Below are positions 4,399-23,751 of a DNA stretch of 64,000 nt, one piece after another. The position numbers and the translations under genes are program-made. Position 1 is the first letter of the stretch. Each line of letters opens with the position of its first letter. A model generated the notes under the pieces. It was not told the DNA's origin, ran no database searches, and saw only the letters and a list, made by a program, of their open reading frames with translations. The stretch is from Bacteroidota bacterium (GTDB lineage Bacteria; Bacteroidota; Ignavibacteria; Kapaibacteriales; UBA2268): contig JAKAKE010000181.1 of assembly GCA_021824625.1 (NCBI GenBank), forward strand, positions 5,209-69,208, in the 5' to 3' direction.

Positions 4399-4403
4399 GC
4401 GGT

Positions 4404-4587: not shown

Positions 4588-4733
4588 CTGAGCTTGTCGA
4601 AGCATCCATATCCTCAAACCAACATCAATTATTATTAAATATAACCTTGAATAACTCCGTAGGAGTTAAACGTTTGTAACAATGACAATACCCGATAAGA
4701 AACACAACTCCGTAGGAGTTGAACCTTCGAGAC

Positions 4734-4783
4734 TTCTCAAATCCCAAATCGTTAATCCTTGTTCGTAAATCCTAATTGTCATT
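4734..4783. repeat. 50-bp direct repeat unit, copy 2
   Basis: Exact duplicate of 4538-4587. Followed by the hairpin motif ttcagcgaaagcaggaat. The palindrome aactccgtaggagtt occurs twice (4652-4666, 4708-4722) between the copies. Confidence 0.8.
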
Positions 4784-4991
4784 TCAGCGAAAGCAGGAAT
4801 TTATAGCCAAAACCCACATCAAGTTAATCTCCCTTCCTTGGGGAAGAGTTTAGGGTAGGTGTAAAAAAATTCCTGCAATCCCTTAATCCACTTAATTCTA
4901 TTTCAGACAACTTGCGTCACTGGGTAAGAATAACCCCATGCTTCAGCATAGTTTGTACCTGTTTTAATATAATGAGATTTTAAAAATATAC

Positions 4992-6134: not shown

Positions 6135-6342
6135 TAATTCTGTTTTTATAATAAAAAAATTATTAATTTGAGAATTCTAAATTCCTTCGTGTCCTTCGTG
6201 TCTATCTCTGTGCCCTTAGTCGTAAAAAAATTTTATTTCTCAATTTTCAATTATTTTAAAATCCTTTTAAAACAGTTTTCTTGACATATCATCCCTCCTG
6301 TATTAGTTTCCCTCCATTAGTTTTTACATCAAAGGAAATACA

Positions 6343-7104: not shown

Positions 7105-7207
7105 AATGCCCATTTCTGCCCAATTTTGGCTCAATATAACCATCAATTATTTGTTCTTTGAAATCCTTTACGCCCTCTTTGTCCTTTGAGTCATTTGAGA
7201 ATAAAAT

Positions 7208-7262
7208 AATTCAGAATTCAGAATTTAATTATCAATTTTCAATTATCAATTTTCAATTATTT
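7208..7262. repeat. 18-mer aattcagaattcagaatt (reverse-complement copy of 4381-4398) followed by ~2.5 tandem copies of aattatcaattttc
   Basis: Direct reading of sequence between two convergent genes. Confidence 0.7.
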
Positions 7263-7814
7263 TTTCCATTTAATATTACATCCTATGCTCGGCTTCTGTT
7301 CTTGGCTTACAGGTTTTCCCGCGAGAATGTTATCGAGGGCTGAACGAATATCCGAACCTGTTACTTCCATTCCATTGCCCGGTCTTGAGTCGTCGAATTG
7401 CCCTCGATAAACGAGTTTCATGTCTTTGTCGAATATATAGAAATCGGGTGTACATGCGGCTTTGTAAGCTTTGGCAATTTCCTGTGTCTCATCAAAAAGA
7501 TAGGGGAATTTATAGCCGAGTTCTTCAGCAGTCAGTTCCATATTTTCAGGAGAATCCTCGGGATAATTTTCGACATCATTCGAACTGATGCCTATAAATG
7601 AAATGCCTTTTATCAAATAATCATTTGATAATAAGACTAATTCAGAATTTATGTGCTTGACATAAGGGCAATGATTGCAGATAAACATAATAACAGTTGC
7701 AATATCCGATTTCAATTCTTCTAATGAAAGTGTATTTCCCGAAACAGTGTCGAACGAAATGAAATCTGGAGCTAATGTCCCAAGCGGGAGCATATTAGAT
7801 GGTGTTTCTGACAT
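7257..7814 (-). CDS. thioredoxin-fold redoxin (AhpC/TSA-like thiol-disulfide oxidoreductase family)
   Basis: 185 aa; N-terminal LAPDF...GN.L.L, CxxC-like active-site CNHCPY, overall thioredoxin-fold pattern. Confidence 0.55.
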   Translation of the reverse strand: MSETPSNMLPLGTLAPDFISFDTVSGNTLSLEELKSDIATVIMFICNHCPYVKHINSELVLLSNDYLIKGISFIGISSNDVENYPEDSPENMELTAEELGYKFPYLFDETQEIAKAYKAACTPDFYIFDKDMKLVYRGQFDDSRPGNGMEVTGSDIRSALDNILAGKPVSQEQKPSIGCNIKWKK

Positions 7815-7901
7815 AATTTTCCTAATTCATTATTTAAATAAAACAAATAAAATCATTAATCGTGGTTTACCAAAATTTTATTTAAACAACCAAGAAAATA
7901 A

Positions 7902-9674
7902 TTGAGCAAACAAGAAGATATAGAATACAAAGCAATTGACCTGAAAATCCTGAAAAGGCTTCTGGTCTATCTCAAGCCATATAAGAAGTGGGTTGCAGTT
8001 TCTGTTGTTATAACTATCATTTCATCTGCACTTGCACCTGTACTGCCTTACCTGACAAAAATCGCAGTTGATAAGTACATTGAACCCAGGAATTGGAATG
8101 GTTTGGTTGGAATAATATTTATAATTGGTGTTCTTCTTCTTGTTAATGCTTTTCTCAGGTTTGTACTGACATACCTCATGCAATGGCTCGGACAGAAGGT
8201 TCTCTTTGATGTCCGGATGTCAGTATTCAAGCATATTCAATCGCTGAGCATGAGATTTTATGATACTAATCCTGTCGGCAGGCTCGTTACACGCGTAACG
8301 AATGATGTGGAAGGATTGAACGAACTTTTCTCACAGGGTGTTGTGATGATTGCCGCCGATATTATGCTTATTTTCTGGATTATCGGATTTATGTTCTACA
8401 CTAATTGGGAACTTAGCCTTCTGACTTTATCAGTCATACCGCTCCTGTTATTTTCAACCGTTATTTTCAGGAAAAGAGTGAGAGTGTTGTTCCATGACAT
8501 CAGGCTCAGAGTGGCTGAGATGAATACTTTTCTTAATGAGTTTATATCAGGTATAAACACTGTGAAAGTATTTATCCAGGAAGAAAATCAGAATAAAAAG
8601 TTTGACAGTATCAATTCTCAGCACAAAGAACTTTGGGTAAGAACTGTATTTTACTATGCCATTTTCTTTCCTACTGTAGAAATGCTCAGTGCAATTGCTC
8701 TGGGAATTGTTCTGTGGTATTCGGCAGGAAATATCCTTTCGGGAGTAATGACAGTCGGTATTTTGATTGCTTTCACACAATATGCGGAAATGTTTTTCAG
8801 GCCCATAAGAGACCTGACCGAAAAGTTCACAACCTTACAAAGTGCGATGGCATCAGCAGAACGAATACTCAGTATCCTCGATACGAAAGATATAGCAGAT
8901 GATAAGCCGGATGCGAAAGATATGCCGGGATTTCATAAGGCAATTGAATTTAAAAATGTATCTTTCAGCTACGATTCGGCAAAATGGGTTTTGAAGGATG
9001 TTTCATTTACAGTGAATAAAAGTGAGACTGTCGCAATTGTCGGTGCAACAGGAGCAGGGAAGACCTCAATCATAAATTTGCTTTGTAGGTTCTACGATTA
9101 CAATGAAGGTGAGATTCTTATTGATGGGACTGATATTCGCAGTTTAAATCAGAATTCTTTAAGAGAACATTTTGCACTTGTGATGCAGGATGTATATTTA
9201 TTTTCAAGAACTCTTGCCGAAAATATTTCACTTGGCAAGGAACAAGTAAGTGATAAAGATATACGAAAAGCCGCTATATCTCTCGGTGCTGATTATTTTA
9301 TCGAAAGGCTTTCATCAGGATACGAAACTGAAATGATTGACAGAGGCTCAGCACTGTCGGCAGGGCAAAGGCAGTTAATTGCATTTTGCAGGGCTTATGC
9401 AATGAATCCTGAAATTTTAATTTTGGATGAAGCAACATCAAACATTGATTCCGAAACTGAGAGAATAATAGAAAATTCTCTCGAAAAACTTTTGGAAAAT
9501 CGGACATCAATAATTATTGCACACCGACTGTCAACAATCCGCAGGGCTGATAAAATTATAGTACTGCATAAAGGAACAATCAGGGAAATCGGGACACACA
9601 AAGAATTGTTAGCGTTGAACGGCATCTATGCCAGACTATATCAGTTGCAGTTCAAAGAGCAAATAGCGGTGTAA
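7902..9674 (+). CDS. ABC transporter ATP-binding/permease fusion (MsbA/lipid exporter-like); TTG start
   Basis: Six predicted TM helices followed by NBD with Walker A GATGAGKTS, signature LSAGQRQLIAFCRA, Walker B ILILDEATSNID and H-loop IIIAHRLST. Confidence 0.9.
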   Translation: MSKQEDIEYKAIDLKILKRLLVYLKPYKKWVAVSVVITIISSALAPVLPYLTKIAVDKYIEPRNWNGLVGIIFIIGVLLLVNAFLRFVLTYLMQWLGQKVLFDVRMSVFKHIQSLSMRFYDTNPVGRLVTRVTNDVEGLNELFSQGVVMIAADIMLIFWIIGFMFYTNWELSLLTLSVIPLLLFSTVIFRKRVRVLFHDIRLRVAEMNTFLNEFISGINTVKVFIQEENQNKKFDSINSQHKELWVRTVFYYAIFFPTVEMLSAIALGIVLWYSAGNILSGVMTVGILIAFTQYAEMFFRPIRDLTEKFTTLQSAMASAERILSILDTKDIADDKPDAKDMPGFHKAIEFKNVSFSYDSAKWVLKDVSFTVNKSETVAIVGATGAGKTSIINLLCRFYDYNEGEILIDGTDIRSLNQNSLREHFALVMQDVYLFSRTLAENISLGKEQVSDKDIRKAAISLGADYFIERLSSGYETEMIDRGSALSAGQRQLIAFCRAYAMNPEILILDEATSNIDSETERIIENSLEKLLENRTSIIIAHRLSTIRRADKIIVLHKGTIREIGTHKELLALNGIYARLYQLQFKEQIAV

Positions 9675-9713
9675 ATTAATTCTGAATTTATTAATAAAAA
9701 ATTGCGAATAATA

Positions 9714-11894
9714 TTAAAGCATCCCTGCTCTTTTTCTGAGGAACCATTCAATACCAAAGCATATGATTGAAATAATTAATAATAGCGGGAGATTCCACAG
9801 TGCTGATTCATTGCGGATTGTCACGCTTTTCGGTTTGAAGTTATTTAATTTTTCCAAATCATTTAAAAAGGATTTAGTTTCATCAGGCAGATAAAATTTT
9901 CCGCCTGTCCTTTCTGATATTGTACGAAGCAGAGAAGAGTTCATTCTCAAATCCTGAAATTCGAGTGCAATTTGTCCGACATTGAATCTTCCTTTATCTG
10001 AACCAAGCTTTCGTCCGTTTTGTTCTGCTGTGCCGGTAAAGAAGTAATCACTCTCGGGTAAACCTTCGAGCTTGCCTGTGTATCTTCCGTTTCCTATGGA
10101 AGTCAAAGTCAAATCACTTTCCTGATTTCCTCCACTTATTTTTACTTGTACATTTGCATTTTCGATTGGAGTATATGCGGCATCATAGATTTGCCCGATG
10201 AACTCGACTGTTTCATTAATGGTATATAGCTTTTTTGTTGTCCTGATAATCACCTGTTTATTGTCATAAGGAGTTGAAAGCCATTTCCTGCTGTTCTCCA
10301 TCAGAATGTTGAACAAGTCTGGAGTTTCGGTTCTTCCTTTTGATGCTTCCGAAGCATAGCCAAGCAGTTTCCATCTGAATAATCCGTAGCCAAGAAATGC
10401 AATTGATTTTTTATTACCGAATGAACGGGTGAGTATGAGAGGTTCTTTTAATGGGGCATTATTCACTTTCAAACCTGATACGATTTCGCTTTCAGGTTTG
10501 ACCTTGACAAATGTTTCTGTTCGAAAAACAGGTGGAAGTTGATTCCACAAATCAATGTCTGTATCTTTTCCGGTAACTCTGAGTAAGGGATTCGAAGCAT
10601 ATTCAGGTTTTACATCAGGCACTGCAAGAAACTCCTGTGGCTTCGATGAAATAGTCGTGAATGGAAGATAATCTTCAATTGTTTTTAATTTATTATAATC
10701 TAAATATTGCGATGCTATGAATAAAAGTGGTTTCCCTCTTTCAAGTTCCTTCTTGATTATTTGCATTACATTCGCAGGTGTCTCGGTAATCGGAAATCCT
10801 ATAAGGACGAGCATTTCTGCGTCTTTCAGGTCAGCTTCGGAAGGCTGCTTGTCATAAAATTCAGAGCCTTTCTTTTGGATGAATGAAATTAATTCAACAC
10901 CTTTTTCGGATAGGAATGAATTTTTTACAAATGAATAATCAGGATTAATTGAACCGGCAAAAATTGCAATTTTTCTTTTATTCTTTAAAACATTTACAAA
11001 CTCATTTGCAGAATTGTTTTTTGTTGTTATTTCATTATTTAGTGTACTGACAACGGTTGTAAGTTTTCTTATTCCTTCCTGTTTCGGAGAATATTCGAAA
11101 ACAGCGGTGAATGATTTTTTGTCAGGATGAACGGTAAATTTTTGTTCTCCGATGGTAGCATCATTATCAAGAAGTTTAAGAGTTAATTCACCTTCATTAT
11201 ATCCGTTTACTTTAACATTCACATTGACAGGGACAGGATTATTGATATAAATATTTTCATTTGTAATGATTGATTGAATTGAGACATCATGCGGTTCGGT
11301 TGAATCTCCGATTCCGATTGTGAAAATTGGTTTTCCGAGAAACTCTGCATCATAAATCGGATTATTACCTGTATTGAAAGCACCGTCAGTTATTAATAAG
11401 ACTGCCTGAATATTTTCTTTCTCAGCATTGGAAGAAACCCATTTCAATGCTTTGGAAATATCTGTCATTTGCCCTTTGAAATTCATTTCCTTAAATGTAA
11501 ATTCATCAGGTGAATAAATATCACTGCTGAAAATTGTTGTTTTTAATTTATCTTTATTTAAAGAAAGAAAATTTGAATTGTCAATCGCCTTAAGAAAACT
11601 AATTTTCCTATCTCCCAAAGCATCCCATTGGCTTACTGAAAGTGAATTATCGAGGAGTACCGCCAGTTTCGGTGCATCCTGAGTTCCCCTGATAATAGTA
11701 AGTATTGGTTCAAATAAAATAAATAATAGAAGAGAGAGTGCAATAGACCTTAATGTAATCAATACTATTTTTCTTGCTGAACTGATTTGGGGAACTGTCG
11801 TACGATAAGAAAATATCGAAAAAGCGACAGCAATTATTATCAATAAAGCAGTGAGCCACCAAGAACCGGATATTCCTAAATAATATGAATTCAT
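9714..11894 (-). CDS. VWA-domain membrane protein with N-terminal double-TM anchor (TIGR02226-like) and C-terminal TM
   Basis: Two N-terminal TM helices then MIDAS motif AVLLDNSLSVS and VLLITDGAFN; C-terminal hydrophobic helix LLLIISIICFGIEWF; resembles BatA-type aerotolerance-family architecture. Confidence 0.6.
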   Translation of the reverse strand: MNSYYLGISGSWWLTALLIIIAVAFSIFSYRTTVPQISSARKIVLITLRSIALSLLLFILFEPILTIIRGTQDAPKLAVLLDNSLSVSQWDALGDRKISFLKAIDNSNFLSLNKDKLKTTIFSSDIYSPDEFTFKEMNFKGQMTDISKALKWVSSNAEKENIQAVLLITDGAFNTGNNPIYDAEFLGKPIFTIGIGDSTEPHDVSIQSIITNENIYINNPVPVNVNVKVNGYNEGELTLKLLDNDATIGEQKFTVHPDKKSFTAVFEYSPKQEGIRKLTTVVSTLNNEITTKNNSANEFVNVLKNKRKIAIFAGSINPDYSFVKNSFLSEKGVELISFIQKKGSEFYDKQPSEADLKDAEMLVLIGFPITETPANVMQIIKKELERGKPLLFIASQYLDYNKLKTIEDYLPFTTISSKPQEFLAVPDVKPEYASNPLLRVTGKDTDIDLWNQLPPVFRTETFVKVKPESEIVSGLKVNNAPLKEPLILTRSFGNKKSIAFLGYGLFRWKLLGYASEASKGRTETPDLFNILMENSRKWLSTPYDNKQVIIRTTKKLYTINETVEFIGQIYDAAYTPIENANVQVKISGGNQESDLTLTSIGNGRYTGKLEGLPESDYFFTGTAEQNGRKLGSDKGRFNVGQIALEFQDLRMNSSLLRTISERTGGKFYLPDETKSFLNDLEKLNNFKPKSVTIRNESALWNLPLLLIISIICFGIEWFLRKRAGML

Positions 11895-11903: not shown

Positions 11904-12623
11904 TTATCTCATTGGTACTTCAATTATAAGCAATTCTGCTTTCCCGACAGCTTTGATTTTTAATTCGGAAATATCATAAATCGAGATTGAATCACGCTTT
12001 TCCAATGTTTCTCCAGATGATTCAATCTTACCTTTTGTTAACATTATAAAAACACCGTTTTCAGGATTATTTAATTTATATTCTAATTCAAGGTTGTCAT
12101 CTAAATCTGCTATACTAATGTAAGCGTCCTGATTTATCCATAAAGTATCATCAGATTTTTCTGGAGAAACAAGTAACTGAAATTTATTTTTTCTTAGTGA
12201 AGTATCGAACAATTTTTGGTCATAACTTGGCTTAATATCTTTTTCCTTAGGGAAAATCCAAATCTGGTAAAGGATTGCCGGTTCTTTTTCCGAGTTGTTA
12301 AATTCCGAATGCCAAATGCCGGTTCCTGCAGACATAATCTGCACCTCTCCGGGTTTAATTGTCTGAGTGTGTTCTTCACTGTCGGTATGCCTTAATTCAC
12401 CTGAAAGAGGTATTGTGATAATTTCCATATTATCATGTGGATGCAAACCGAAACCTGAAGCAGGAGCGATAGTATCATCATTCAGGACTCTTAGCTTTCC
12501 GAAGTGAATTCTTTTATCATCGAAATACCCGGAAAAGCTGAATGAGTGGTAAGTTTTGAGCCACCCGTAATCGAAAAAACCTCTTGTATCATTTCTATAT
12601 ATTTCTTTTTTCATTGATTTCAT
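11904..12623 (-). CDS. pirin family protein (cupin; quercetin 2,3-dioxygenase-like)
   Basis: GFGLHPHDNMEIITIPLSGEL (pirin N-terminal metal-binding His cluster) and ...GTGIWHSEFN; length 239 aa typical. Confidence 0.85.
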   Translation of the reverse strand: MKSMKKEIYRNDTRGFFDYGWLKTYHSFSFSGYFDDKRIHFGKLRVLNDDTIAPASGFGLHPHDNMEIITIPLSGELRHTDSEEHTQTIKPGEVQIMSAGTGIWHSEFNNSEKEPAILYQIWIFPKEKDIKPSYDQKLFDTSLRKNKFQLLVSPEKSDDTLWINQDAYISIADLDDNLELEYKLNNPENGVFIMLTKGKIESSGETLEKRDSISIYDISELKIKAVGKAELLIIEVPMR

Positions 12624-12752
12624 TTTAAAGTGTTTATAAATCTGAACGAATAACGATTAAGCAGATTAAAGATTTTTATTTGGGCTGATGATAGGCTGGG
12701 TATATTGGGATTTTACCAAGTGAAATAAATTGGTTATTTTTGTATAATATTT

Positions 12753-12826
12753 CGGGGTGTAGCTCAGCCCGGTAGAGTACTACGTTCGGGACGTAGGAGC
12801 CGGAGGTTCAAATCCTCTCACCCCGA
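12753..12826 (+). tRNA. tRNA-Pro (anticodon CGG)
   Basis: Manual fold: acceptor CGGGGTG/CACCCCG, D-arm GCTC..GAGT, anticodon stem CTACG/CGTAG with loop TTCGGGA (anticodon CGG), T-arm GGAGG-TTCAAAT-CCTCT, discriminator A; no encoded CCA. Confidence 0.85.
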
Positions 12827-12890
12827 CATATCTTTCAGCTAACTTAAATGGTTATTTCCTTGCACAACCTTTACTCAACAATTTGTTGTT

Positions 12891-13373
12891 TTATATTGAT
12901 TTTCGGTTATTGTATTCGGTTTTAAATGCTTCGATAGCTTCATCCAGAGGCTTTTTTAAAATTTCAGAAAATTTCTGTGCCTCACGGACATTATTCTGAT
13001 AACGAATCGCCCTGTCAAGTGTGAAAATTATTTGCTCTTTTTTAAAAGGTTTTGTTATATAATCGTAAACACCTTGCGAAAGTGCTTCCATAGCGGTTTC
13101 AAGCGAGCCGAATGCCGTGATGATAATTACCTGCTCAAATCGCTTATTGTCTTTGACATACTTTAATATATCGAGTCCGTCCATACCCGGCATTTTGAGG
13201 TCGGTAATTATTATATCATACTCATTTTGTTCGAGCAGATTCGGTACTTCGAGTGAATTATTAGTAACAGTAATTTGATAAGGAGTTTTTTCCCGAATAA
13301 TTCTTTCAAGAAGTCGGAGTAAATCCGGTTCGTCGTCTATTGCAAGGATGTTTTGTTTCATTTTATTCACCAT
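12891..13373 (-). CDS. single-domain response regulator (CheY-like receiver with short C-terminal extension)
   Basis: ILAIDDEPDLL...DIIITDLKMPGMDGLDIL...IIITAF receiver motifs with phospho-accepting Asp; no DNA-binding output domain; 8-bp gap to upstream HK. Confidence 0.85.
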   Translation of the reverse strand: MVNKMKQNILAIDDEPDLLRLLERIIREKTPYQITVTNNSLEVPNLLEQNEYDIIITDLKMPGMDGLDILKYVKDNKRFEQVIIITAFGSLETAMEALSQGVYDYITKPFKKEQIIFTLDRAIRYQNNVREAQKFSEILKKPLDEAIEAFKTEYNNRKSI

Positions 13374-13381
13374 TATAATAG

Positions 13382-15538
13382 TTATTCATTTTCTATTTTT
13401 GGTATTGTAATTATAAAAGTTGTACCTGTCTGATTACCGGGATAATCTTCATCAGAAAAGCTTCTAAAATTAATTTTTCCACCGAATTTTGCAATTATTC
13501 CATAGCACAAAGATAAACCCAAACCAGTGCCTTCTCCAACTTTTTTTGTAGTAAAGAAGGGGTCGAAGATTTTCTGTTTTATTCTGTTTGGTATTCCTTC
13601 GCCGGTATCAGATATTTCAACAATAACATTTTGTCCTTCTTCAAATGCATTGATGACGATTGTTCCTCCACCTTCTTTTTTCATAGCTGAAACAGAATTA
13701 TTAATCAGATTGAAAATTACTTGCTGGAATTCACGCGAGTCTCCCCTGATTTTTGGTAGATTTTCCGGAATATTTATATTCAAACTAATTTTTGATGTAA
13801 ATAGAGTATTTTTTACTATTGTACCAACCGTTTCAATGCATGCTTTCGCATCAGTATTATCTTCCAGTCCTTCTGTAATTCGTGCGAAACCTAAAAGATT
13901 CTCGACAATCTTTTTAGCATGATTCACATTCGACTCGATAGTTTTCAGGTCTTTGTAGGTCTGTGAATCGGGTGGAAAGTTATCTACAAGCAAGTCCGTA
14001 AAGCCAAGTATAACTGCAAGAGGATTATTTATTTCATGTGCGACACCTGCCGCAAGCGTGCCAATTGAAGCAAGTTTTTCGGTGTTGTACATCATATTTT
14101 CAAGCTCTCTTTTCTTGGTTTCGTCTCTTACAATAATCGAATAGCCGAGAATTTCACTCTTTAGAGAACTGATAAGTGTTTTGGAGATATTAACCATTAC
14201 TTTTTTGCCGGACTTAGTTACTCTTTCGGCAATGTAATTAGAAATATAACCATTTTTTATTACCAATTCATTAATTTGGTCAAGTTCCTCATCTGCGTCA
14301 ATTTCGGAAGGTATTAATCTGCGGAAAGAATGTCCAATCATTTCATCTGAAGTAAATTCAAAAATCTTTTCAGCACCTTTATTCCATACACGTACTAAAT
14401 TATCTTTACCGGTGAAAATGATAGCATCGAGGGAGTTTTCTAATATGCTTGAAATTATTTCCTGCTGTTCTGTTACACGTTCCTTTAAACCTTCAGATAT
14501 TTTTCTTTGGTAAGCCGCAAAGAAAAAAGCAAACAGGATCATACCGGCTGCAATAAATAATTCTGCTCCGAGATGTCTCATGTATGCTTTATCTATAGCC
14601 TCTGCGACTTCACTTATTGGAGCGACTACGGCAATAGACCAAACCCTGCCTTTGAGTGCAGTATTTTTTATTGGTGTAAAGGCAATAAGTTTAATAATTT
14701 TCCCTTTCATATTCCTATGCCACCAGCTTTCGTAAATTCCTGTGCCTTCCTCTCCTTTCATCATCTTATCCTTCATAATGATATTAATCTGGCTGAAGTT
14801 TACATAAGGCTTTTTTCCACGACGTGCCTCGAAAATATTTCTTCCAATAAATCCACTTTCAGGATGATATAAAGCTGTTGCATTTTCATCAATAACCCAA
14901 GCATAACCTGTTTTACCTGACCTGACATTTCCAATTATCTTCCTGAACAATTGTGATAATTCAAGTCTTGTAAACAGCATTCCCGTAAGCCTTCCATTTG
15001 TTCTTAATGGTATTGTGATATCACTGATAATAAAAATTTTTCCGGTGGAGTCTTGATGGACTGAGAGTGGTGAAAAGGTCATTCTCTCACTATGATTATT
15101 TATATCATCAATTTTAATTTTTGACAAATCAAGGTTAGGAAAGCTGCCATGATTGTAATATTCAACAAGCTTACCTTGTGAATTCAATAATCCAATGTCA
15201 ATTATTCCCATATCTGCGTTTTGTTTTAGAACGCTCACCATAGCCTCCTTGCGGATTTTTCCTTCGGTATCTTCGGCAAACCATTTTAGGCTTTTCAGTT
15301 GTATCTCAAGATTGTTCAGAAACAGCTCGAACTGTGCTGATGACTGCCTTGCAAGAATAAGCTGCTGCTGGTTGAAGTCGTCGTTTATTTGTTTTTTGAT
15401 TGCTTCGGAATCGAGATAAATAAGATAAATTGCTATCCCAAAAATAATGAAGAATAAAATTGAAATCAGAAACGGCGTAAATTTTTTTCTGAAAAAAAAG
15501 TTACTTATTCTGTCAACAATCATTAGGAAATTTTTCAT
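13382..15538 (-). CDS. membrane sensor histidine kinase (periplasmic Cache-like domain, PAS, HisKA, HATPase_c)
   Basis: Two TM helices flanking a ~280-aa extracytoplasmic domain, PAS (LENSLDAIIFTG...), H-box AHEINNPLAVILGFTDLL, N/G boxes (FNLINNSVSAM; GTGLGLSL). Confidence 0.85.
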   Translation of the reverse strand: MKNFLMIVDRISNFFFRKKFTPFLISILFFIIFGIAIYLIYLDSEAIKKQINDDFNQQQLILARQSSAQFELFLNNLEIQLKSLKWFAEDTEGKIRKEAMVSVLKQNADMGIIDIGLLNSQGKLVEYYNHGSFPNLDLSKIKIDDINNHSERMTFSPLSVHQDSTGKIFIISDITIPLRTNGRLTGMLFTRLELSQLFRKIIGNVRSGKTGYAWVIDENATALYHPESGFIGRNIFEARRGKKPYVNFSQINIIMKDKMMKGEEGTGIYESWWHRNMKGKIIKLIAFTPIKNTALKGRVWSIAVVAPISEVAEAIDKAYMRHLGAELFIAAGMILFAFFFAAYQRKISEGLKERVTEQQEIISSILENSLDAIIFTGKDNLVRVWNKGAEKIFEFTSDEMIGHSFRRLIPSEIDADEELDQINELVIKNGYISNYIAERVTKSGKKVMVNISKTLISSLKSEILGYSIIVRDETKKRELENMMYNTEKLASIGTLAAGVAHEINNPLAVILGFTDLLVDNFPPDSQTYKDLKTIESNVNHAKKIVENLLGFARITEGLEDNTDAKACIETVGTIVKNTLFTSKISLNINIPENLPKIRGDSREFQQVIFNLINNSVSAMKKEGGGTIVINAFEEGQNVIVEISDTGEGIPNRIKQKIFDPFFTTKKVGEGTGLGLSLCYGIIAKFGGKINFRSFSDEDYPGNQTGTTFIITIPKIENE

Positions 15539-15545
15539 TTTACGC

Positions 15546-18119
15546 CTATGTCATTTTAATTTTTTCAAGTATGTCTTTTTTATAAGATTCCATTTCATAA
15601 TCATCGCTCAGTGCCATGTCAAGCTGCTTTGTCAGCATCGTGAGCTGTCCAAGGGCAAACAACCTGTTTTGCAAAATATCTTTTTGAAGATATGAAATTT
15701 CCGATTCAAAGGCATCGCCTTTACTACTACATTCAAAACCAAGTTTACTCAGAATTGATTCAAGCAGCTTAATTCTCCTCAGTCTTCTTTCAAAAGTTGC
15801 TCCACCTTCTTTGAACCTAAGTCTTATAAAATTTTTATTTGGTATTTCGGTACACATCGCCTCAATTGTCGAGAAGTGATAACCCATCCTTAATGACAGT
15901 ACCATATATTCTTTTGAACAAATCACATAACTTTTCTCAGCGAATCCCGATTTTTTTTGGGTTGTCAAATCAGTTGCCATCACTGTCATAAAGCTTTTCA
16001 TGTCCGGTGCAGCAGGTGGCAATGTCCACCCAATATTTTCAATACCCTCCCAAAATGATTCGAATGGTACGGAGTTAATATTTTCAAATGCGATATTTCT
16101 TTTTTTATTGGTCAGATATGATTCATCAATCGAAATAATATCCACAGGTAATGGGATATCACTTTTCAAATGGTAAGGGATAGTTTCACCTTTAAAGTTT
16201 TTAGCACTTGAAAACATTTCTTCGATTGCTTTTTGATGAGCAAACCTTAGAATATCGTGAACCGTTTTACAATTCTCAATAATGAAATCCGGGGAGCGTG
16301 AATCAGTCAGATTGATTGGTGCAATTTTACCGGATATTTTTTCAAGAATATTAAATGAAGTAATATCATATTCAAAGTCGTTATCGGGTTTTAATGCGTC
16401 TGCTAATTCAGGGATTGAATCTTTATAAATTATGCAATTTGCTGCATCAACTGTTACGATAGTTCCATTTACAAGTTTTTCGATTTCATTAAAACCAACA
16501 ATTGTCGGAATTCTGTATTCACGAGCTATTGTTATCAGGTGGCTTGCAACACCACCCACTTTTGTTATTAAAGCAGAGGCACGGCTTAATGCCGTTATTA
16601 AGCCCGGGAACGGATACTCGGCAACAATGACTGCAGATTCAGGTACTGACTCGAGGTCATTTGTGTTTTTAACATGGTGAACAGTACCAATACCTGCTCC
16701 GGGAGAGGCTGTAGTGCCGGATTTTGTGATGAAATTAAAGTTTGATGTATCAATTGATTCTTTTAATAATTTCTTTTTTATAACATTTAATGGACGTGTT
16801 TGTAAAATGTATTGATTATTGTTTTCATCAATTGCCCATTCAATATCCTGAGGGCAACCGTAATGCTCCTCGATTTTAATCGCCAATTCTGCTAATTTTC
16901 TGATTTCTTCATTATTGGCAGATAAATCATTTCTATTGGATTCTGGTATTTCCTGAATGGAAACATCTCCATCTTTATTCAAAATTAACTTCTTTTCCTT
17001 GTAAGCAGGTATATCTCCAACTATTTCATAGTTCGATTTGGATACAATAAACTGGTCGGGAGTTATTGTGCCATCTACAAGAAGTTTCCCAATGCCAAAT
17101 ATAGAATTTATCAATAAATTATTATCATCAGGATTGACTGGGTTGGATGTGTAAATCACACCACTTGAACGAGCATTTACCATTGATACACAACCGATAC
17201 TCATAGCTAAATCCGATTCGGCAAGTTCATGACTAAGGTAATAATAAATTGCTTTAGGACTGAATTTACTTGCAATCACTTTCAGATATGCTCCAATCAG
17301 GTTTTCCTTTTTGACACCAAGGCAAGTTGAGTACTGCCCTGCAAAACTTAACTTTGAGTCTTCACCGATAGCACTTGAACGAACCGAGACAAGATTTTGA
17401 ATTGGAGATGCACCGACTTCGCTCAGCGTAACAGATTCCATTAAATTGTCATGAGAATTTAAAATAGTTTGGGATAAGTCCTCCGGAATTTCTGAATTTA
17501 ATATCAAGGAAGAAATATCATTACTGATTTTTTCAAGCCCGCTATAATTTTTAATATCTACATTTTTCAGAATATTAGTGATTTTATTTTGCAGGTCATT
17601 CGAATCGAGAAAATATTTGTATGCCCAGGCCGACACAGCGAATCCGTCAGGAACAGGTATATTCAGTATATTTCTTAATTCACCGAGTTGTGCATTTTTA
17701 CTTCCAACACTTGACGACTTATTTTTATCTAACTGTGAAAATGGGATTGTGAACTCATCCTTGGGAATTACTGACTTTTCAGATAACTCATTGAGAATTT
17801 CTTTTTGAATATTTTTAAATTTCTCTCCCAGACTTTCATATTCTTTTCCACCAAGTTCAATAAGATGAGCAATAAGGCTTTCAAGAATTTTATTAAGATT
17901 TTCAATTGAATTGTTTATATAGTTTATATCATATATAAATTCACCGGTTGTCTTTTCTTCAATATCACTAATGATTTTTAATGCCTGGTTATTGGATTCG
18001 AGAACGGACATGAAAGCATCGAATTTTTCAATAAGAACAAAAGGCTGATTAGAAACAGCTTTTTCATTTTTTGTTTTATTAAAAATATTATGAAAAATAT
18101 TCATAACAATTAAAACCAA
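15546..18119 (-). CDS. PEP-synthase-like phosphotransferase, paralog A (PPDK_N nucleotide-binding domain + mobile phospho-His domain + non-canonical C-terminal domain)
   Basis: VRSSAIGEDSKLSFAGQYSTCLGV (PPDK_N/PEP synthase N-domain motif), DIEWAIDENN, phosphohistidine swivel motif GGVASHLITIAREYRIPTIVG; ~300-aa C-terminus lacks recognisable PEP/pyruvate TIM-barrel motifs; 7-bp gap to downstream HK. Confidence 0.75.
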   Translation of the reverse strand: MVLIVMNIFHNIFNKTKNEKAVSNQPFVLIEKFDAFMSVLESNNQALKIISDIEEKTTGEFIYDINYINNSIENLNKILESLIAHLIELGGKEYESLGEKFKNIQKEILNELSEKSVIPKDEFTIPFSQLDKNKSSSVGSKNAQLGELRNILNIPVPDGFAVSAWAYKYFLDSNDLQNKITNILKNVDIKNYSGLEKISNDISSLILNSEIPEDLSQTILNSHDNLMESVTLSEVGASPIQNLVSVRSSAIGEDSKLSFAGQYSTCLGVKKENLIGAYLKVIASKFSPKAIYYYLSHELAESDLAMSIGCVSMVNARSSGVIYTSNPVNPDDNNLLINSIFGIGKLLVDGTITPDQFIVSKSNYEIVGDIPAYKEKKLILNKDGDVSIQEIPESNRNDLSANNEEIRKLAELAIKIEEHYGCPQDIEWAIDENNNQYILQTRPLNVIKKKLLKESIDTSNFNFITKSGTTASPGAGIGTVHHVKNTNDLESVPESAVIVAEYPFPGLITALSRASALITKVGGVASHLITIAREYRIPTIVGFNEIEKLVNGTIVTVDAANCIIYKDSIPELADALKPDNDFEYDITSFNILEKISGKIAPINLTDSRSPDFIIENCKTVHDILRFAHQKAIEEMFSSAKNFKGETIPYHLKSDIPLPVDIISIDESYLTNKKRNIAFENINSVPFESFWEGIENIGWTLPPAAPDMKSFMTVMATDLTTQKKSGFAEKSYVICSKEYMVLSLRMGYHFSTIEAMCTEIPNKNFIRLRFKEGGATFERRLRRIKLLESILSKLGFECSSKGDAFESEISYLQKDILQNRLFALGQLTMLTKQLDMALSDDYEMESYKKDILEKIKMT

Positions 18120-18341
18120 TTATAAAATACAATACTAAAATAACAATTATTTGTTGAGTGTAATCCAATAGTAAGTTGTATTTATAATAAAATATATTAA
18201 TTAAGTCTATAAAGTTTGATTTCATAATTGCTTAGTAATGCAACACATAAATTACATTTGGACTTTTAAACTTTAATAAACAGAAATCATTAGTTAATTT
18301 TTTTTCAATTAAAATGCTTTTTTACTAAAAGAAGGTGTTGA

Positions 18342-18623
18342 ATGTTTAAAAAATTAATTAGCCGTTGCCTTCTGTTATTATGCTTCTTAGCCGCAAATAC
18401 CGGTAATTTGTTTGCCGAAGGCAAACCTGCAACCGAACTGAACAAAACTGTGAAAGTCGAAGGGTTAACCGGATTGAATCTTTTTTTGGCACAAACTTAC
18501 AATAGCAACAGATTGCTTTTTGCAGTCATCTCGACTGGAGTGATTGTGATTCTTGGTGTAATTGTTACATACATTGTAAGCCTGTTCATCAAGCCCGCAG
18601 GGCATACACATAAAGAAGAATAA
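18342..18623 (+). CDS. small secreted/membrane protein (signal peptide + C-terminal TM)
   Basis: N-terminal signal-like LLLLCFLAANTGNLFA and C-terminal helix AVISTGVIVILGVIVTYIVSLFI; 23 bp upstream of the TauE gene. Confidence 0.35.
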   Translation: MFKKLISRCLLLLCFLAANTGNLFAEGKPATELNKTVKVEGLTGLNLFLAQTYNSNRLLFAVISTGVIVILGVIVTYIVSLFIKPAGHTHKEE

Positions 18624-18646
18624 AAAAAATAAATAACGGAGAAAAC

Positions 18647-19750
18647 ATGGATATTTTTAACATTTATCTTCCAATTGCCGAAATTCAATTCAATGTAATT
18701 TTGCTGTTTGTATTAGGATTTTGTGTTGGGGTATTAGGTGGTTTTTTTGGAGTTGGTGGGGGGTGGATTGTTACTCCAACTTTAAATATATTTGGATTTC
18801 CGATGGATTTTGCTATCGGAACTGATATTACATATATTTTTGGGACATCTATTGTATCGACGAAAATTCACAGCGGACTTGGAAATATTGACTGGAAGCT
18901 GGGAATATTTTCAATTGTCAGTTCTGTAATTGGAGTAGAAGTCGGTGCCCAACTAATAATGTATCTTGGAAAAACTTATGGCATTGAAGGCTTAGATTCT
19001 ATTGTCCGATGGAGTTTTATTACACTTCTGATATTTTTGGGTGGTTTTATGCTTTATGACTATTTCGTAGTACAGAAAAGATTGTCCGAAGAAGAAAGAA
19101 AAGCGGATGACCCCATGCAAACACACATATCCAAGATTCAAAAAAAGAAAAAAGTGGCTCTTCCGATTCGATTACAAAATATAAGGTTATTCCCAATGGT
19201 TTCATTCAAAACTTCGGGAATAAAATCTGTTTCGTTCTGGATTGTATTTGTTATTTTCTTTGTAGCCGGAGTATTACAGGGATTTCTCGGTGTCGGCGGA
19301 GGTTTTATCAAGATGCCGGCAATGATTTATCTATTGGGAGTACCTACGGTGATTGCCGTTGGAACTGACTTATTCAATGTGTTAATAACCTCCATCTATG
19401 GCGGTTTCACTTATGCCATTAAAGGCAGAGTGGAACTCATTGCTGCTGTAATCATGTTTTTTGGTGGTGCATTCGGTGCGATATTTGGTTCTACTGCAAC
19501 AAAATATGTAAGAGGATATGGTATTAGGTTATTATTTGCTATTATGATTATAGTTGCAGGAGGTTCTGTTGTTATTAAACAACTTGAAAAGCCACTGCAC
19601 ATGCCTATTTTAAATGATATTTCAGGTTATCTTGTTGTTGGTGCCGCAATACTGATGACATCTATAGTATTATGGAAATTAGTTGTAAGTTATTATCAAT
19701 TAAAAAAATCAGAAATGGGATTTGACCCTGATTCAATTGGTAAACACTAA
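18647..19750 (+). CDS. TauE/SafE (DUF81) family anion permease
   Basis: Duplicated 4-TM halves each with the Gly-rich motif (VGVLGGFFGVGGGWIVTP and LQGFLGVGGGFIKMPAMIYL) characteristic of sulfite/sulfoacetate exporter TauE/SafE family. Confidence 0.75.
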   Translation: MDIFNIYLPIAEIQFNVILLFVLGFCVGVLGGFFGVGGGWIVTPTLNIFGFPMDFAIGTDITYIFGTSIVSTKIHSGLGNIDWKLGIFSIVSSVIGVEVGAQLIMYLGKTYGIEGLDSIVRWSFITLLIFLGGFMLYDYFVVQKRLSEEERKADDPMQTHISKIQKKKKVALPIRLQNIRLFPMVSFKTSGIKSVSFWIVFVIFFVAGVLQGFLGVGGGFIKMPAMIYLLGVPTVIAVGTDLFNVLITSIYGGFTYAIKGRVELIAAVIMFFGGAFGAIFGSTATKYVRGYGIRLLFAIMIIVAGGSVVIKQLEKPLHMPILNDISGYLVVGAAILMTSIVLWKLVVSYYQLKKSEMGFDPDSIGKH

Positions 19751-19830
19751 GTTGAGTGTTGAATGTTGAATGTTGAGTGCTGAATTGACAATTGCAAATA
19801 TCATTTGGTGAAACAACAATAAAAATAATA

Positions 19831-19866
19831 AAGCCGCCTCAAGATAGGGTGGCTTTTTTCTTTTTG
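19831..19866 (+). terminator. rho-independent terminator after TauE gene
   Basis: Hairpin aagccgcc-tcaagatag-ggtggctt followed by ttttttcttttt. Confidence 0.65.
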
Positions 19867-19898
19867 ATTGATAAGTACGTTTATGTTATTTTGGTTTT

Positions 19899-22550
19899 AT
19901 GTTTAAATTTCTAAAAATATTGTTTACACCCAGGAGTAAGAGTAAACTTACTTTCAAAAAGAAGTTTCTGCACTTCCAGGGATTACTTGCCTCAAACGAC
20001 GAGGCTCATAGAAATATGAGTGAAATGGCTGAGATGCTCACTTCCGGTAAAATCTTTTCAAAAGCTTATGCAAATAAAATTTATAGAAATCTAATTGCCT
20101 CTGCTTATGATATAGCAAGGCATCTTGTTATTTTGAGCAGTGGTAAATACCAGCAATTAATTTCAAGGACTGAGGAATTAGAAGAAAAATGCAAACAAAT
20201 TCTATCACCGAGAATTCTGTGCCCCGAAGGTTGGGACTGTCCTGATTATAATTGCCAGGTTTGTGATAAGGTTAAAAAGATTGATGAGAATATTCCCTAC
20301 TATTACCCATTAAATCAAGTTGATGATGTTCTGTCTCTCGAAATTGGGACAAAGATGAGCCATCTCGGCGAGATAAGCAAAAAGCTGCAAATTCCCATAC
20401 CGGATGGATTCTGTCTTACTGTGCGATTGTTTGAAGACATCATGATAGACAGCGATTTGCGCGAAAGAAAAGACGAAATATTTCATGATATTGATTTTGA
20501 TGACATTAAACAAGTAAAAAAGGCTTGCCAGGAAGCACAGGAATTATTTATATCAACTCCGATTCCTGAGCATATTAAAAAGATTATTCTCGATGCTTAT
20601 AATGAATTTTTCGGATTAAATAATAACGTCCTGGTTTCGGTACGTTCCAGTGCCATTGGAGAAGATAGTGCAAATTATTCATTCGCAGGACTTCACTTAT
20701 CGGCTTTAAATGTTAGCAGAGAAAACCTTGTTGATGCCGTTTATGAAGTGTTGATATCGAAGTATTCTCCTCAATCAGTCGTTTACAGGTATATTTCGGG
20801 TTTAAGGGACGAAGATATGCCAATGAGTGTCGGATGCCTGAAAATGGTCAATGCTAATGCCGCTGGTGTTATTTTTACAACCGATCCGATTCACCAGAAA
20901 GATGTTCTAATAATCAATGCTGTCAAAGGACTTGGTACAGTAGCTGTATCCGGCAGAGTCTCTCCGCAGGTATTCATACTTGACAAAAATAATAATTTCA
21001 ACTTAATCGGCTTTTCTCCGGGAATGCAGGACTACAAAGAAAGCCCAAAGTCCACTGATGGTTTGGAAAAAGTTAAATTAGATGATAAGTCGGTAATTCC
21101 CTGCCTGAACGAAATTCAGTTGAAGGAGCTGGCTGATTATGCCACATTGATTGAACAACATTATGGCTCCCCTCAGGATATTGAATGGGTAATTGATGAA
21201 AATAACAAAATTTTGATTTTGCAGGCAAGACAGCTACAATCAAAAAGGAGAAAAGATGATATTATCATAGATAAAGGAAAATTAACCCATCTGGACAAAA
21301 CCTACAAAATATTGCTTAATCATGGGGATTGTGCTAGCACAGGTATAGCCACAGGCAAGGTTTTTAGTGTGAACAATATTAAGGATATTAATGACTTTCC
21401 CAAAGGAAGTATAGTTGTTTCCAAAAAGAATCTACCTGAATTTACAAGTCTCATACACAAAGCTTCGGGATTTATTACTGATGTCGGAAGCACAACCGGA
21501 CATCTTTCAATCATTGCAAGGGAGCAGAATATACCGGTTATCACCAATACAATCAATGGGACCGAGATACTGAAAAATGGTATGGTAATAACTTTGTTTG
21601 CCGATGCAAGCAAGGTTTATGAGGGGAAAGTTGATGAGCTTATTGAAGTATCCGATAAAATCAAAGAAAGCGATAATCTGTTTTTAAAAAGCCCTCTCTA
21701 CAGGCTCTGGCACGGGGTTTCTAAATTTGTTTTCAAATTGAATCTTACAAATCCAAATTCTGCAAAATTTTCTCCGGAATATTGTTTGACTTATCATGAT
21801 ATAATCAGGTTCGCTCACGAAGTTTCCATGAAGGAGATGTTTGCATTTTATGAAACTGCAAGAGTGGATAGCGGCAAAACATACAAGTTGAAATTTGAAG
21901 TTCCGTTGAATATATATGTAATTGACTTAGGTGGCGGCATTAAATCCGATTTAACAGCTAATTCAATTTGTGTTGATGAGATAAAATCCAAACCTTTCCT
22001 GTCTTTGATTAAAGGTATGACAACACAGGGTATTGAATGGGGAGGGCCACTGTCAATTGATGCAAAAGGGTTTTTAAATATCATGATGACAAACCTATCT
22101 GACCCTCACAAAGCTGAAAGAGACATAGGCTCCAGAAGCTATGCACTGATATCTGACAATTATTTGAATTTCTTTTCACGCCTGGGCTATCATTTTTCTC
22201 GTCTTGACGCTCTGGCAAGTAATGAAGTCAATAATAACTATATTAATTTTCATTTTCGCGGGGGAGCAGCAGACCAGGTCAGAAAAGAACGGAGAGCAAA
22301 AGCTATCACCAGAATATTAGAATCTCTACATTTCACTGTGATTCACAGAGGAGATACAGTTATAAGTAATATCAGAAAAATACATGTGGAAGATATTCAC
22401 ACAATGTTGGAAGTTATTGGGCGGCTTATGGGTGCTGTCAGAAATACCGATGTAACAATGCTGACTGACAATCATGTTGATGTATTTGTTAATGCATTTC
22501 TCAACGGAGACCCGGCGCCTGTAAAAAGATTTTATACTTTGGAAAATTGA
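19899..22550 (+). CDS. PEP-synthase-like phosphotransferase, paralog B
   Basis: VRSSAIGEDSANYSFAGLHLSALNV, DIEWVIDENN, GSTTGHLSIIAREQNIPVITN; N-terminal Cys cluster CPEGWDCPDYNCQVCDK; C-terminal domain shares motifs with paralog A (HDI.RFAH..KEMF; Y.LIS..Y.N...R.GYHFS; F.FRGG). Confidence 0.75.
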   Translation: MFKFLKILFTPRSKSKLTFKKKFLHFQGLLASNDEAHRNMSEMAEMLTSGKIFSKAYANKIYRNLIASAYDIARHLVILSSGKYQQLISRTEELEEKCKQILSPRILCPEGWDCPDYNCQVCDKVKKIDENIPYYYPLNQVDDVLSLEIGTKMSHLGEISKKLQIPIPDGFCLTVRLFEDIMIDSDLRERKDEIFHDIDFDDIKQVKKACQEAQELFISTPIPEHIKKIILDAYNEFFGLNNNVLVSVRSSAIGEDSANYSFAGLHLSALNVSRENLVDAVYEVLISKYSPQSVVYRYISGLRDEDMPMSVGCLKMVNANAAGVIFTTDPIHQKDVLIINAVKGLGTVAVSGRVSPQVFILDKNNNFNLIGFSPGMQDYKESPKSTDGLEKVKLDDKSVIPCLNEIQLKELADYATLIEQHYGSPQDIEWVIDENNKILILQARQLQSKRRKDDIIIDKGKLTHLDKTYKILLNHGDCASTGIATGKVFSVNNIKDINDFPKGSIVVSKKNLPEFTSLIHKASGFITDVGSTTGHLSIIAREQNIPVITNTINGTEILKNGMVITLFADASKVYEGKVDELIEVSDKIKESDNLFLKSPLYRLWHGVSKFVFKLNLTNPNSAKFSPEYCLTYHDIIRFAHEVSMKEMFAFYETARVDSGKTYKLKFEVPLNIYVIDLGGGIKSDLTANSICVDEIKSKPFLSLIKGMTTQGIEWGGPLSIDAKGFLNIMMTNLSDPHKAERDIGSRSYALISDNYLNFFSRLGYHFSRLDALASNEVNNNYINFHFRGGAADQVRKERRAKAITRILESLHFTVIHRGDTVISNIRKIHVEDIHTMLEVIGRLMGAVRNTDVTMLTDNHVDVFVNAFLNGDPAPVKRFYTLEN

Positions 22551-22752
22551 ATAATTTATGAATTGCTGTGAGCTGGCTAAATCTTTTATTATTACTTGTT
22601 GATTAGAGTTATTGGCAGTATGATTTCTTATTATCAAAAAGCCTGAAATTTAAAATTCTTTTAATATTATATTATACCCTTTAATTTTACTTTTTTTCAA
22701 TTTCTTTTATTCGTAAATTTCAATTGATTTTTAGTATCTACTTATTTTAATT

Positions 22753-23751
22753 ATGTCAGGTAAAAGTTTCAAAGCACTCGTTGTTGATGAAGTTCGGGAA
22801 AATGTTTTTCAAAGAAGAATTATTGAAAGAAATGTAGATGAACTTCCGCCGGGGGAGGTGCTTATCAGGGTGGAATATTCTGCTTTGAATTATAAGGATG
22901 CTCTCTCTGCAAAAGGCCATAAAGGCATAACAAGAAAGTATCCACATACTCCAGGAGTTGATGCATCGGGTGTGGTTGAAGCAAGTACGTCCGATCTATT
23001 TCTTGTTGGTGAAAAAGTTTTTGTAACAGGTTATGACCTTGGGATGAATACATCGGGAGGTTTTGGTCAATATATCAGGGTTCCTGCTGGATGGGTTATT
23101 AAGATTCCCCCCGATTTTTCATTAAGAGAAATTATGATTTATGGTACTGCAGGGTTTACTTCCGGGATAGCTATATACGAAATGCAGAGGAATGAAATTA
23201 CTCCCGATAAAGGAAAAATTCTGGTAACGGGTGCTGCTGGAGGAGTTGGCTGTCTTGCAACAGCAATGCTTACTAAAGCAGGTTATTATGTTGTAGCCTC
23301 TACCGGAAAACTCCAAAAAAAAGATTTCCTTATGAATTTAGGAGCTAAGGAAGTAATAAGCAGGGAAGATTTGATTGATACAAGCGGCAAGCCTTTGCTT
23401 CCAAAGAAATGGGCTGGAGCAATTGAAAATGTTGGGGGAAATACATTATCAACAGTAATAAAATCCATCGGGAATAGGGGGGTTGTTACAAGTATAGGTT
23501 TAGTTCAATCGGATAAGCTCGAGACAACTGTTTATCCTTTCATTTTGAGAGGTGTGAGACTTATTGGAGTTGACTCTGCCGAAAGCCCGATGGACTACAG
23601 ATTGAAAATTTGGAATAAGATTTTTACTGAGTGGAGGCTGGATGAACCAGAACAATTAGTAAAGGAATGTTCCTTAATTGAATTGGATAAAGAAATTGAG
23701 TTAATTTTGAAAGGCGGGCAAACGGGTAGAGTAGTAGTAAATATGAAGTGA
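22753..23751 (+). CDS. YhdH/AcuI-family NADPH-dependent oxidoreductase (MDR superfamily, acrylyl-CoA reductase-like)
   Basis: FKALVVDE...YSALNYKDALSAKGHKGITRKYPHTPGVDASGVV and Rossmann GAAGGVG; ~330 aa, typical YhdH/YhfP. Confidence 0.8.
   Translation: MSGKSFKALVVDEVRENVFQRRIIERNVDELPPGEVLIRVEYSALNYKDALSAKGHKGITRKYPHTPGVDASGVVEASTSDLFLVGEKVFVTGYDLGMNTSGGFGQYIRVPAGWVIKIPPDFSLREIMIYGTAGFTSGIAIYEMQRNEITPDKGKILVTGAAGGVGCLATAMLTKAGYYVVASTGKLQKKDFLMNLGAKEVISREDLIDTSGKPLLPKKWAGAIENVGGNTLSTVIKSIGNRGVVTSIGLVQSDKLETTVYPFILRGVRLIGVDSAESPMDYRLKIWNKIFTEWRLDEPEQLVKECSLIELDKEIELILKGGQTGRVVVNMK

Follow-up and report, generated by a model that had tools for sequence, protein, structure and literature searches.

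The window examined here, a 64-kb stretch of DNA (64,000 nucleotides) from a Bacteroidota bacterium, carries at positions 12891-22550 six open reading frames (ORFs), two of which encode the paralogous proteins A and B. Both resemble phosphoenolpyruvate (PEP) synthase, PpsA, and in A-type and B-type proteins alike the TIM barrel of that enzyme is replaced by a new alpha/beta domain of ~280 aa. The PpsA-like pair probably controls sulfur-anion transport rather than making PEP. To the more specific proposal, that A-type and B-type proteins are cytoplasmic, ATP-driven regulatory phosphotransfer proteins of sulfur-oxyanion transporters, most likely those for sulfate or sulfite, we give an even chance.

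Several observations favor a regulatory over a metabolic role: individual loci hold several paralogues, each beside its own transporter (DASS, SulP or TSUP); related proteins lack the catalytic domains altogether; an unusually conserved response-regulator receiver has no output domain; a CBS protein is encoded in 46 of 56 loci; and in one lineage (L091) the receiver is fused to a DASS transporter. The link to sulfur oxyanions is suggested by the transporters and by their surroundings. DASS, SulP and TSUP/TauE are unrelated, yet all three are candidate sulfate-transporter families, each with known or candidate carriers of sulfate or other sulfur oxyanions (PMC5840216), and the genes lie repeatedly next to sat-aprBA and siroheme genes.

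Domain architecture of the A-type and B-type proteins

Paralogue A (15546..18119, minus strand; 857 aa from a TTG codon) and paralogue B (19899..22550, plus strand; 883 aa) each combine a PPDK_N and a PEP-utilizers domain and are 31% identical end to end, C-terminal domain included (E 8e-127). The start of A is probably the ATG at 18104, giving 852 aa, which is the length of the identical recorded protein P0046. P0046 and P0311, both from a 'Bacteroidetes bacterium' metagenome-assembled genome (MAG), are 100% identical over 99% of their respective queries; these records, together with thousands of homologues, indicate that the genes are real.

Pfam placed the ATP-grasp nucleotide-binding domain of A (PPDK_N, PF01326; E 1e-86) at aa 136-456 (16752..17714, minus strand) and its swivel phosphohistidine domain (PEP-utilizers, PF00391) at aa 493-561 (16437..16643, minus strand). 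The counterparts in B, on the plus strand, span aa 148-454 (E 7.5e-79) and aa 500-566. PF02896 (PEP-utilizers_C) matched neither protein in Pfam, the outcome foreseen by the first-pass annotation, a reading of this DNA made from its sequence. The catalytic histidine of A, His527 (codon 16539-16541, minus strand), sits in a GGVASH motif that aligned with GGRTSH of the PEP synthase 8a8e; that of B, His535 (codon 21501-21503, plus strand), sits in GSTTGH. The histidine motif ascribed earlier to both paralogues needs correcting for B, which departs from the GG..GH pattern. Other motifs listed as common to the two were all present: VRSSAIGEDS (A 246-255, B 248-257), HDI.RFAH (A 621-628, B 633-640), GYHFS (A 746-750, B 763-767) and GGA (A 772-774, B 788-790). 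Across 61 full-length sequences, B among them, His527 and the ATP-grasp motifs were invariant.

NCBIfam equivalog models for PpsA matched only the N-terminal ~470 positions and scored below their cut-offs (NF005057, cut-off 598 bits: A 346, B 306; TIGR01418, cut-off 740 bits: A 335, B 291). The rifampin phosphotransferase (Rph) model NF041857 matched over the ATP-grasp alone (194 bits for A and 174 for B; cut-off 999), and the pyruvate phosphate dikinase (PPDK) model TIGR01828 over the His-domain region alone (63 and 50 bits; cut-off 843). When PDB sequences were searched, the solved PEP synthases 8a8e, 9dae and 2ols aligned to residues 115-591 of A only. A full-length AlphaFold2 (AF2) model of A (pLDDT 82.9) gave Foldseek matches to PpsA, Rph and PPDK; the prodigiosin ligases PigC/RedH were weaker matches than these three.

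The novel C-terminal domain occupies aa ~582-857 of A (15549..16376, minus strand), where no family matched, and aa ~590-883 of B (plus strand). At the other end of A, a three-helix bundle spans aa ~19-112 (17784..18065, minus strand; AF2 helices at 19-56, 65-90 and 92-112), likewise with no Pfam family. Searched in isolation, the C-terminal ~290 and N-terminal ~135 residues matched no Pfam family even at E<=10 and nothing meaningful in NCBIfam, and a C-domain profile run against PDB sequences matched just the tail (~50 last residues) of the His domain. The C-domain is predicted to fold as an alpha/beta sandwich whose sheet is antiparallel, and no TIM barrel is among its structural neighbours. 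Both the family searches and the predicted fold agree with the earlier claim that the C-terminal region is not the PEP/pyruvate TIM barrel. Newer precomputed Pfam annotation of related genes gave PF01326 and PF00391 only.

Residues H621, D622, R625, H628, H748, N763, G772, R782, D802 and D834 form the invariant set of the C-domain in the 61 sequences, with C617 and R778/R779/R781 nearly invariant. H621, D622, R625 and H628 belong to the HDIxRFAH motif, and H748 to GYH.

The bundle and the C-domain also occur by themselves. Proteins of 387-426 aa (clusters P0021/P0026, P0187, P0194, P0223 and P0273), which we consider genuine, have the bundle fused directly to the C-domain, with neither an ATP-grasp nor a His domain, and carried no precomputed Pfam match. 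Their occurrence as separate proteins argues that the two regions make up an autonomous 'N+C module'. One such gene lies at 10001-11281 in loci L005 and L006; in L005 it is divergent from a full-length paralogue of 891 aa accompanied by a 131-aa receiver, and no kinase lies near that pair. One family member, P0284 (1061 aa), is extended by ~200 aa at its C-terminus, and this part weakly matches the lectin-like domain Glyco_hydro_59_C.

B-type proteins are marked by a Cys4 motif between the N-terminal bundle and the ATP-grasp (CPEGWDCPDYNCQVC in B; aa 108-122, 20220..20264, plus strand), which from its sequence is a candidate Zn or Fe-S site. The motif had been noticed before, but its spacing is C-x5-C-x4-C-x2-C and not C-x4-C-x4-C-x2-C. 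Among 112 B-type sequences, 109-111 retain any given Cys, and A-type proteins are without the motif.

PpsA itself (PDB 8a8e, 9dae, 2ols) has the same order of ATP-grasp followed by swivel His, with GGRTSH in place of the GGVASH of A. It ends in a TIM barrel, whereas A and B have the unrelated alpha/beta domain and an extra N-terminal bundle; its genetic context is central metabolism, whereas theirs consists of transporters and signalling genes. Rph (PDB 5hv1, 5fbs) and PRK06241-type enzymes likewise reuse the ATP-grasp/swivel-His machinery for an acceptor other than pyruvate. However, Rph places its substrate domain between the ATP-grasp and a C-terminal His domain, while in A and B the His domain lies in the middle and the novel domain at the C-terminus, and the Rph acceptor domain has no similarity to the C-domain. 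The first-pass description of A and B as the reverse of Rph was thus a loose one: in domain order they match PpsA, except that another domain takes the place of the TIM barrel and a helical bundle is added at the N-terminus.

The family is large. A C-domain profile search, with clusters counted at 50% identity, returned 1500 clusters at E<=1e-3 and 751 at E<=1e-30, mostly of 840-890 aa, and the B-type subfamily has 705 homologues at E<=1e-50. It extends over many anaerobic phyla; carriers include MAGs of Ignavibacteria-like bacteria, Zixibacteria, Acidobacteriota, Planctomycetota, Desulfobacterota, Omnitrophota, Elusimicrobia and Poribacteria. Public databases hold the proteins under generic or wrong names such as 'pyruvate, water dikinase' or 'PEP synthase', and literature searches for the PpsA-like family found no description. 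A PEP-utilising dikinase with a swapped acceptor module is a known kind of protein; what is undescribed is the module seen here, together with its occurrence on its own and its setting of transporter and receiver genes.

Transporter and signalling genes beside the family

On the minus strand of the window, paralogue A is followed by a membrane sensor histidine kinase (HK; 13382..15538, 718 aa) and a stand-alone response-regulator receiver (RR; 12891..13373, 160 aa), with gaps of 7 nt between A and HK and 8 nt between HK and RR. The plus strand carries a small bitopic, DVU0150-like membrane protein (18342..18623, 93 aa), the first gene of a small-TauE unit, then a TauE/SafE (TSUP family) anion permease (18647..19750, 367 aa), then B. 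These six ORFs, the lengths of A and B and the 7-8 nt gaps were confirmed as first annotated. The head-to-head arrangement described for the two paralogues stands for A, which is separated by 222 nt from the small membrane gene, its divergent neighbour; the small gene, TauE and B all run in one direction. Within the 148-nt spacer that separates TauE from B, a consensus scan found a terminator-like hairpin (19830..19856, plus strand; 10 pairs, then a T run), a pattern match alone and no proof of function. With this hairpin in between, paralogue B may be transcribed on its own or by read-through.

The window kinase and receiver have the hallmarks of a two-component system. Pfam assigned dCache_1, PAS, HisKA and HATPase_c domains to the kinase, its periplasmic dCache_1 domain covering residues 51-304. 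The receiver, with acidic pocket, Thr and Lys, carries Response_reg only (residues 9-116, E 1e-27), with no DNA-binding or output domain in Pfam; its phospho-acceptor is Asp58, and a helical tail of ~40 aa forms its C-terminus. Conservation of the receiver is high: 63/63 A-type receivers retain D13, D58, T86 and K108, and 62/63 retain D14, six of these receivers coming from loci that have no kinase next to them. Identity between the window receiver and its Zixibacteria orthologue is 62%, compared with ~47% for A itself.

To place the locus among its relatives, 80 genome loci were collected through a C-domain match, and their ORFs were labelled by phmmer, for which the window proteins and, from a Zixibacteria locus, the CBS and DASS proteins served as queries; Pfam-annotated contexts were consistent with these labels. 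Downstream genes were counted in 56 loci from many phyla that extend at least 5.5 kb beyond the focal A-type gene, and upstream genes in 51 loci within 7 kb of it. A receiver was found downstream in 49/56, a CBS protein (~175 aa) in 46/56, a kinase in 44/56 and a DASS transporter (Na_sulph_symp) in 29/56, the commonest order being A-HK-RR-CBS-DASS. These frequencies make the suggested tie to a two-component system a strong one. Five loci have SulP in place of DASS after the CBS gene (four with a STAS match; the fifth, the ORF in L083, is a 301-aa piece with Sulfate_transp only). Some loci do without the kinase (A-RR-CBS-DASS), and in others the receiver is missing as well (A-CBS-DASS).

Upstream of the focal gene, TauE was present in 13/51 loci and a second PpsA-like paralogue in 11/51. 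Up to four PpsA-like paralogues share a locus (L036, L088). Extra paralogues stand in tandem, three or four in a row, at 10731-13379 in L088 and 14349-20867 in L036; just downstream of those in L088 lies a sigma-54 response regulator gene. In L091 the order is CBS, receiver::DASS fusion, receiver, dCache kinase, B-type, and the fusion (3797-5587, 596 aa) has Response_reg at residues 5-114 and Na_sulph_symp at 146-587. P0339, the B-type gene that anchors L091, was found on 23 contigs.

TauE and the DVU0150-like gene adjoin the B-type gene in 9/10 B-type contexts. Together with the upstream counts, this upholds the co-occurrence of TauE with the PpsA-like genes that the first-pass annotation had put forward. 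The window layout is repeated in L008-L011 and L088. The TauE protein of the window scored 150.3 bits against PF01925 (gathering cut-off 32.6; E 9e-44). Its 93-aa partner matched NCBIfam NF040783 (DVU0150_fam) weakly, at 28.4 bits (E 1.6e-6; cut-off 70), and is 59% identical to the L088 orthologue, which has a precomputed PF28216 DVU0150 match.

Genes of sulfur metabolism adjoin both types. L089, L090, L093 and L094 show the order siroheme genes, TauE x3, DVU0150, HAMP kinase, receiver, B-type, beside a cluster of sat, aprB, aprA, an Ogr_Delta protein, a CxxCxxCC protein and a QmoC-like Fe-S protein. The Ogr_Delta protein is a small zinc-finger protein, and the QmoC-like one an Fe-S/membrane protein. 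L093 has an H+-pyrophosphatase gene inside this cluster. In L001, sat-aprBA and TauE/DVU0150 lie upstream of the A-type gene, with the sat-apr-type cluster at 4847-9676. No classic qmoAB was found in the stretch seen of the sat-apr clusters of these five loci. This context of sat-aprBA and siroheme genes makes sulfite, sulfonate or sulfate candidate substrates of TauE. A Cytidylate_kin2-family (P-loop kinase-like) gene stands beside TauE in L001 (679-1494) and right after the B-type gene in L090 (10655-11482), where it also has a BON domain.

Two described systems share parts of these neighbourhoods. Desulfobacteraceae clusters of DASS, CBS and dCache-kinase genes have been proposed to tune sulfate uptake (PMC11887813); they bring together a dCache kinase, CBS and DASS/SulP, the trio found downstream of A-type genes in relatives of the window. 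Those clusters have WalR-type DNA-binding regulators and no dikinase-like gene is mentioned for them, whereas here a PpsA-like gene comes first in the operon and the receiver stands alone. The window shares the dCache kinase with them but not CBS or DASS/SulP. In Desulfovibrio vulgaris, a DVU0150-family small membrane protein leads the membrane-protein operon DVU0150-DVU0146, which is induced in sulfate-free syntrophic growth (PMC4641369, PMC4265775). That operon is under sigma-54 activator control with no PpsA-like gene reported, and the small protein of the window matches its family weakly. DVU0149 was not confirmed as a TauE protein, so the tie to this operon stays weak.

Proposed mechanism and alternative explanations

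If the proteins are regulatory, the ATP-grasp domain would phosphorylate His527 in A or His535 in B, and the phosphorylated His domain would swing over to the N+C module. There a bound partner would take over the phosphoryl group, Asp58 of the receiver being the most plausible acceptor; alternatively, discharge of the group may be controlled by a ligand that signals the sulfur or energy state inside the cell. The dCache domain of the membrane kinase would report the external anion, and the receiver, with the CBS protein where present, would adjust transporter activity through protein contact.

The functional analogy proposed is with Enzyme I of the phosphotransferase system (PTS) and its relative EI-Ntr (PtsP), in which a swivel phosphohistidine passes its phosphoryl group to a protein partner. 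The EI-Ntr/NPr/EIIA-Ntr proteins regulate transporters and kinases through protein contact. A and B gave weak His-domain matches to PTS Enzyme I. That enzyme receives its phosphoryl group from PEP by way of a TIM barrel, whereas A and B would receive theirs from ATP by way of the ATP-grasp domain; the PTS also has an HPr-like partner, but none is present beside A and B, and their transfer to a receiver Asp is putative.

Several points weigh against regulatory control of sulfur-oxyanion transport. Sulfate as the substrate is deduced from the transporter families and neighbour genes, and DASS transporters carry dicarboxylates too. To our knowledge, the characterised enzymes of the superfamily, PTS Enzyme I excepted, phosphorylate a small molecule, a glucan or water, and we are aware of no example in which a swivel His domain hands its phosphoryl group to the Asp of a receiver. 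In five of the 56 loci A is followed by neither kinase nor receiver, which rules out the receiver as the sole partner. The invariant H621, D622, H628, H748, R782 and C617 resemble an active site or a metal/ligand site more than a docking surface. No CBS, DASS, SulP, sat or apr gene was found in the whole 64-kb window. The A-HK-RR operon of the window and of its closest relatives, which are Ignavibacteria-like MAGs, lacks the downstream CBS-transporter pair, and the DVU0150-like/TauE pair, divergent from A and followed by B, is the sole transporter unit at the locus. Finally, an apparent C-domain::receiver fusion, P0042 (L092), was dropped as evidence: it lies on a 2-kb metagenome contig in which the PpsA-like gene is already interrupted upstream, and it probably arose from a frameshift or an assembly artefact. 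As in other loci, the next gene encodes a CBS protein.

The strongest alternative, plausible though less likely, is a small-molecule dikinase: the C-domain would be a catalytic acceptor site at which the phosphohistidine phosphorylates a metabolite, such as the anion of TauE, DASS or SulP or a derivative of it, and the two-component system would only regulate expression or activity. The first-pass annotation had leaned this way in suggesting kinases for an unknown small molecule, possibly the anion moved by TauE. Precedent in the superfamily favors such an enzyme, with PpsA, PPDK and Rph as top matches, as do the invariant His, Asp, Arg and Cys of the C-domain, which look active-site-like, the existence of loci with A, CBS and transporter alone, and the tight tie to transporter genes. 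Yet no conserved neighbour would use the phosphorylated product, and we know of no phosphorylated sulfate or sulfite metabolites besides adenosine 5'-phosphosulfate (APS) and 3'-phosphoadenosine 5'-phosphosulfate (PAPS). Several paralogues per locus, each by a different transporter family, and N+C-only proteins without kinase machinery fit an enzyme of this kind poorly, and the receiver, having no DNA-binding domain, cannot be a plain transcriptional regulator. The paralogues by their own transporters, the N+C-only proteins, the CBS protein and the receiver::DASS fusion point to regulation instead.

A more far-reaching version of the regulatory reading is speculative, and we think it rather improbable as a whole. 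PpsA-like proteins would then be a new class of phosphodonor for response regulators, joining an ATP-grasp/swivel-His transmitter to an N+C sensor of intracellular sulfur or energy status. They would charge the stand-alone receiver in parallel with the dCache kinase, the receiver would gate sulfate/sulfite transporters post-translationally, and the Cys4 motif of B-type proteins would add a metal or redox input.

A sensor or recycler of adenylate and pyrophosphate (PPi) has a slim chance. Here the half-reaction ATP + phosphate (Pi) or H2O <-> His~P + AMP + PPi or Pi would read or use the AMP and PPi from ATP sulfurylase and APS reductase, and the N+C module would couple it to transport. A-type and B-type genes do stand beside sat-aprBA, with the H+-pyrophosphatase of L093 within such a cluster, and the CBS protein present in most loci is a typical sensor of adenosyl ligands. 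The argument is purely inferential, however; many carriers, among them the Ignavibacteria-like loci and the window, show no nearby sat or apr, and the novel C-domain is left unexplained.

An Rph-like xenobiotic or antibiotic kinase on a tRNA-linked island is very unlikely. It would be consistent with the weak Rph model and structure matches over the ATP-grasp and with an adjacent tRNA-Pro(cgg) (12753..12827), 63 nt beyond the receiver gene. The domain order differs from that of Rph, though, the score of 194 bits is far from the cut-off of 999, and the sulfur-related gene context is conserved from phylum to phylum. The locus showed neither an integrase nor any other sign of an island, GC content is uniform, and tRNA-Pro is missing from L008, L010 and L088, which were checked as syntenic relatives; L009 has tRNA-Val and tRNA-Leu only. 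An Rph-like resistance enzyme on an island was therefore rejected by domain order and synteny, and the island itself by the lack of an integrase, the uniform GC and the missing tRNA-Pro. The tRNA adjacency noted earlier, with no integrase, is real but incidental as a sign of an island.

An ordinary PEP synthase or PPDK for gluconeogenesis, as the database names imply, was rejected and is next to impossible: the N-terminal similarity to PpsA is strong, but the PEP/pyruvate domain is missing, the equivalog scores fall far below the cut-offs and the C-domain is predicted as a non-TIM alpha/beta sandwich.

Surroundings of the locus and significance of the family

An Rfam scan of 12500-23000 matched the tRNA alone and no riboswitch. 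A sigma-70 promoter scan gave 36 sites compared with 42.5 expected in shuffled sequence; sigma-54 and Bacteroidota-type promoters were not formally searched. Elsewhere in the window, a membrane H+-translocating pyrophosphatase gene (1845-4322, plus strand), of the same kind as that in the L093 sat-apr cluster, lies ~8.5 kb from the locus. A 726-aa ORF (9714-11894, minus strand) had no Pfam match; the one model that it matched, weakly and in part (23 bits), was that of a Leptospira-type BatA VWA protein. The plus strand also carries two giant ORFs, one of 1802 aa (26385-31793) and one of 1963 aa (38366-44254).

The analysis defines two protein regions that had not been modelled, the N-terminal bundle and the C-domain. 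Mis-annotation of their carriers as PEP synthase can distort metabolic reconstructions of uncultured anaerobes. In anaerobes, sulfate reducers included, protein-level control of sulfate uptake and sulfite export is poorly understood, and the family supplies a concrete candidate regulator that is widespread and whose catalytic His, partner receiver and transporter neighbours of three families are all defined. If phosphotransfer to the receiver is true, the known ways of charging response regulators would widen.

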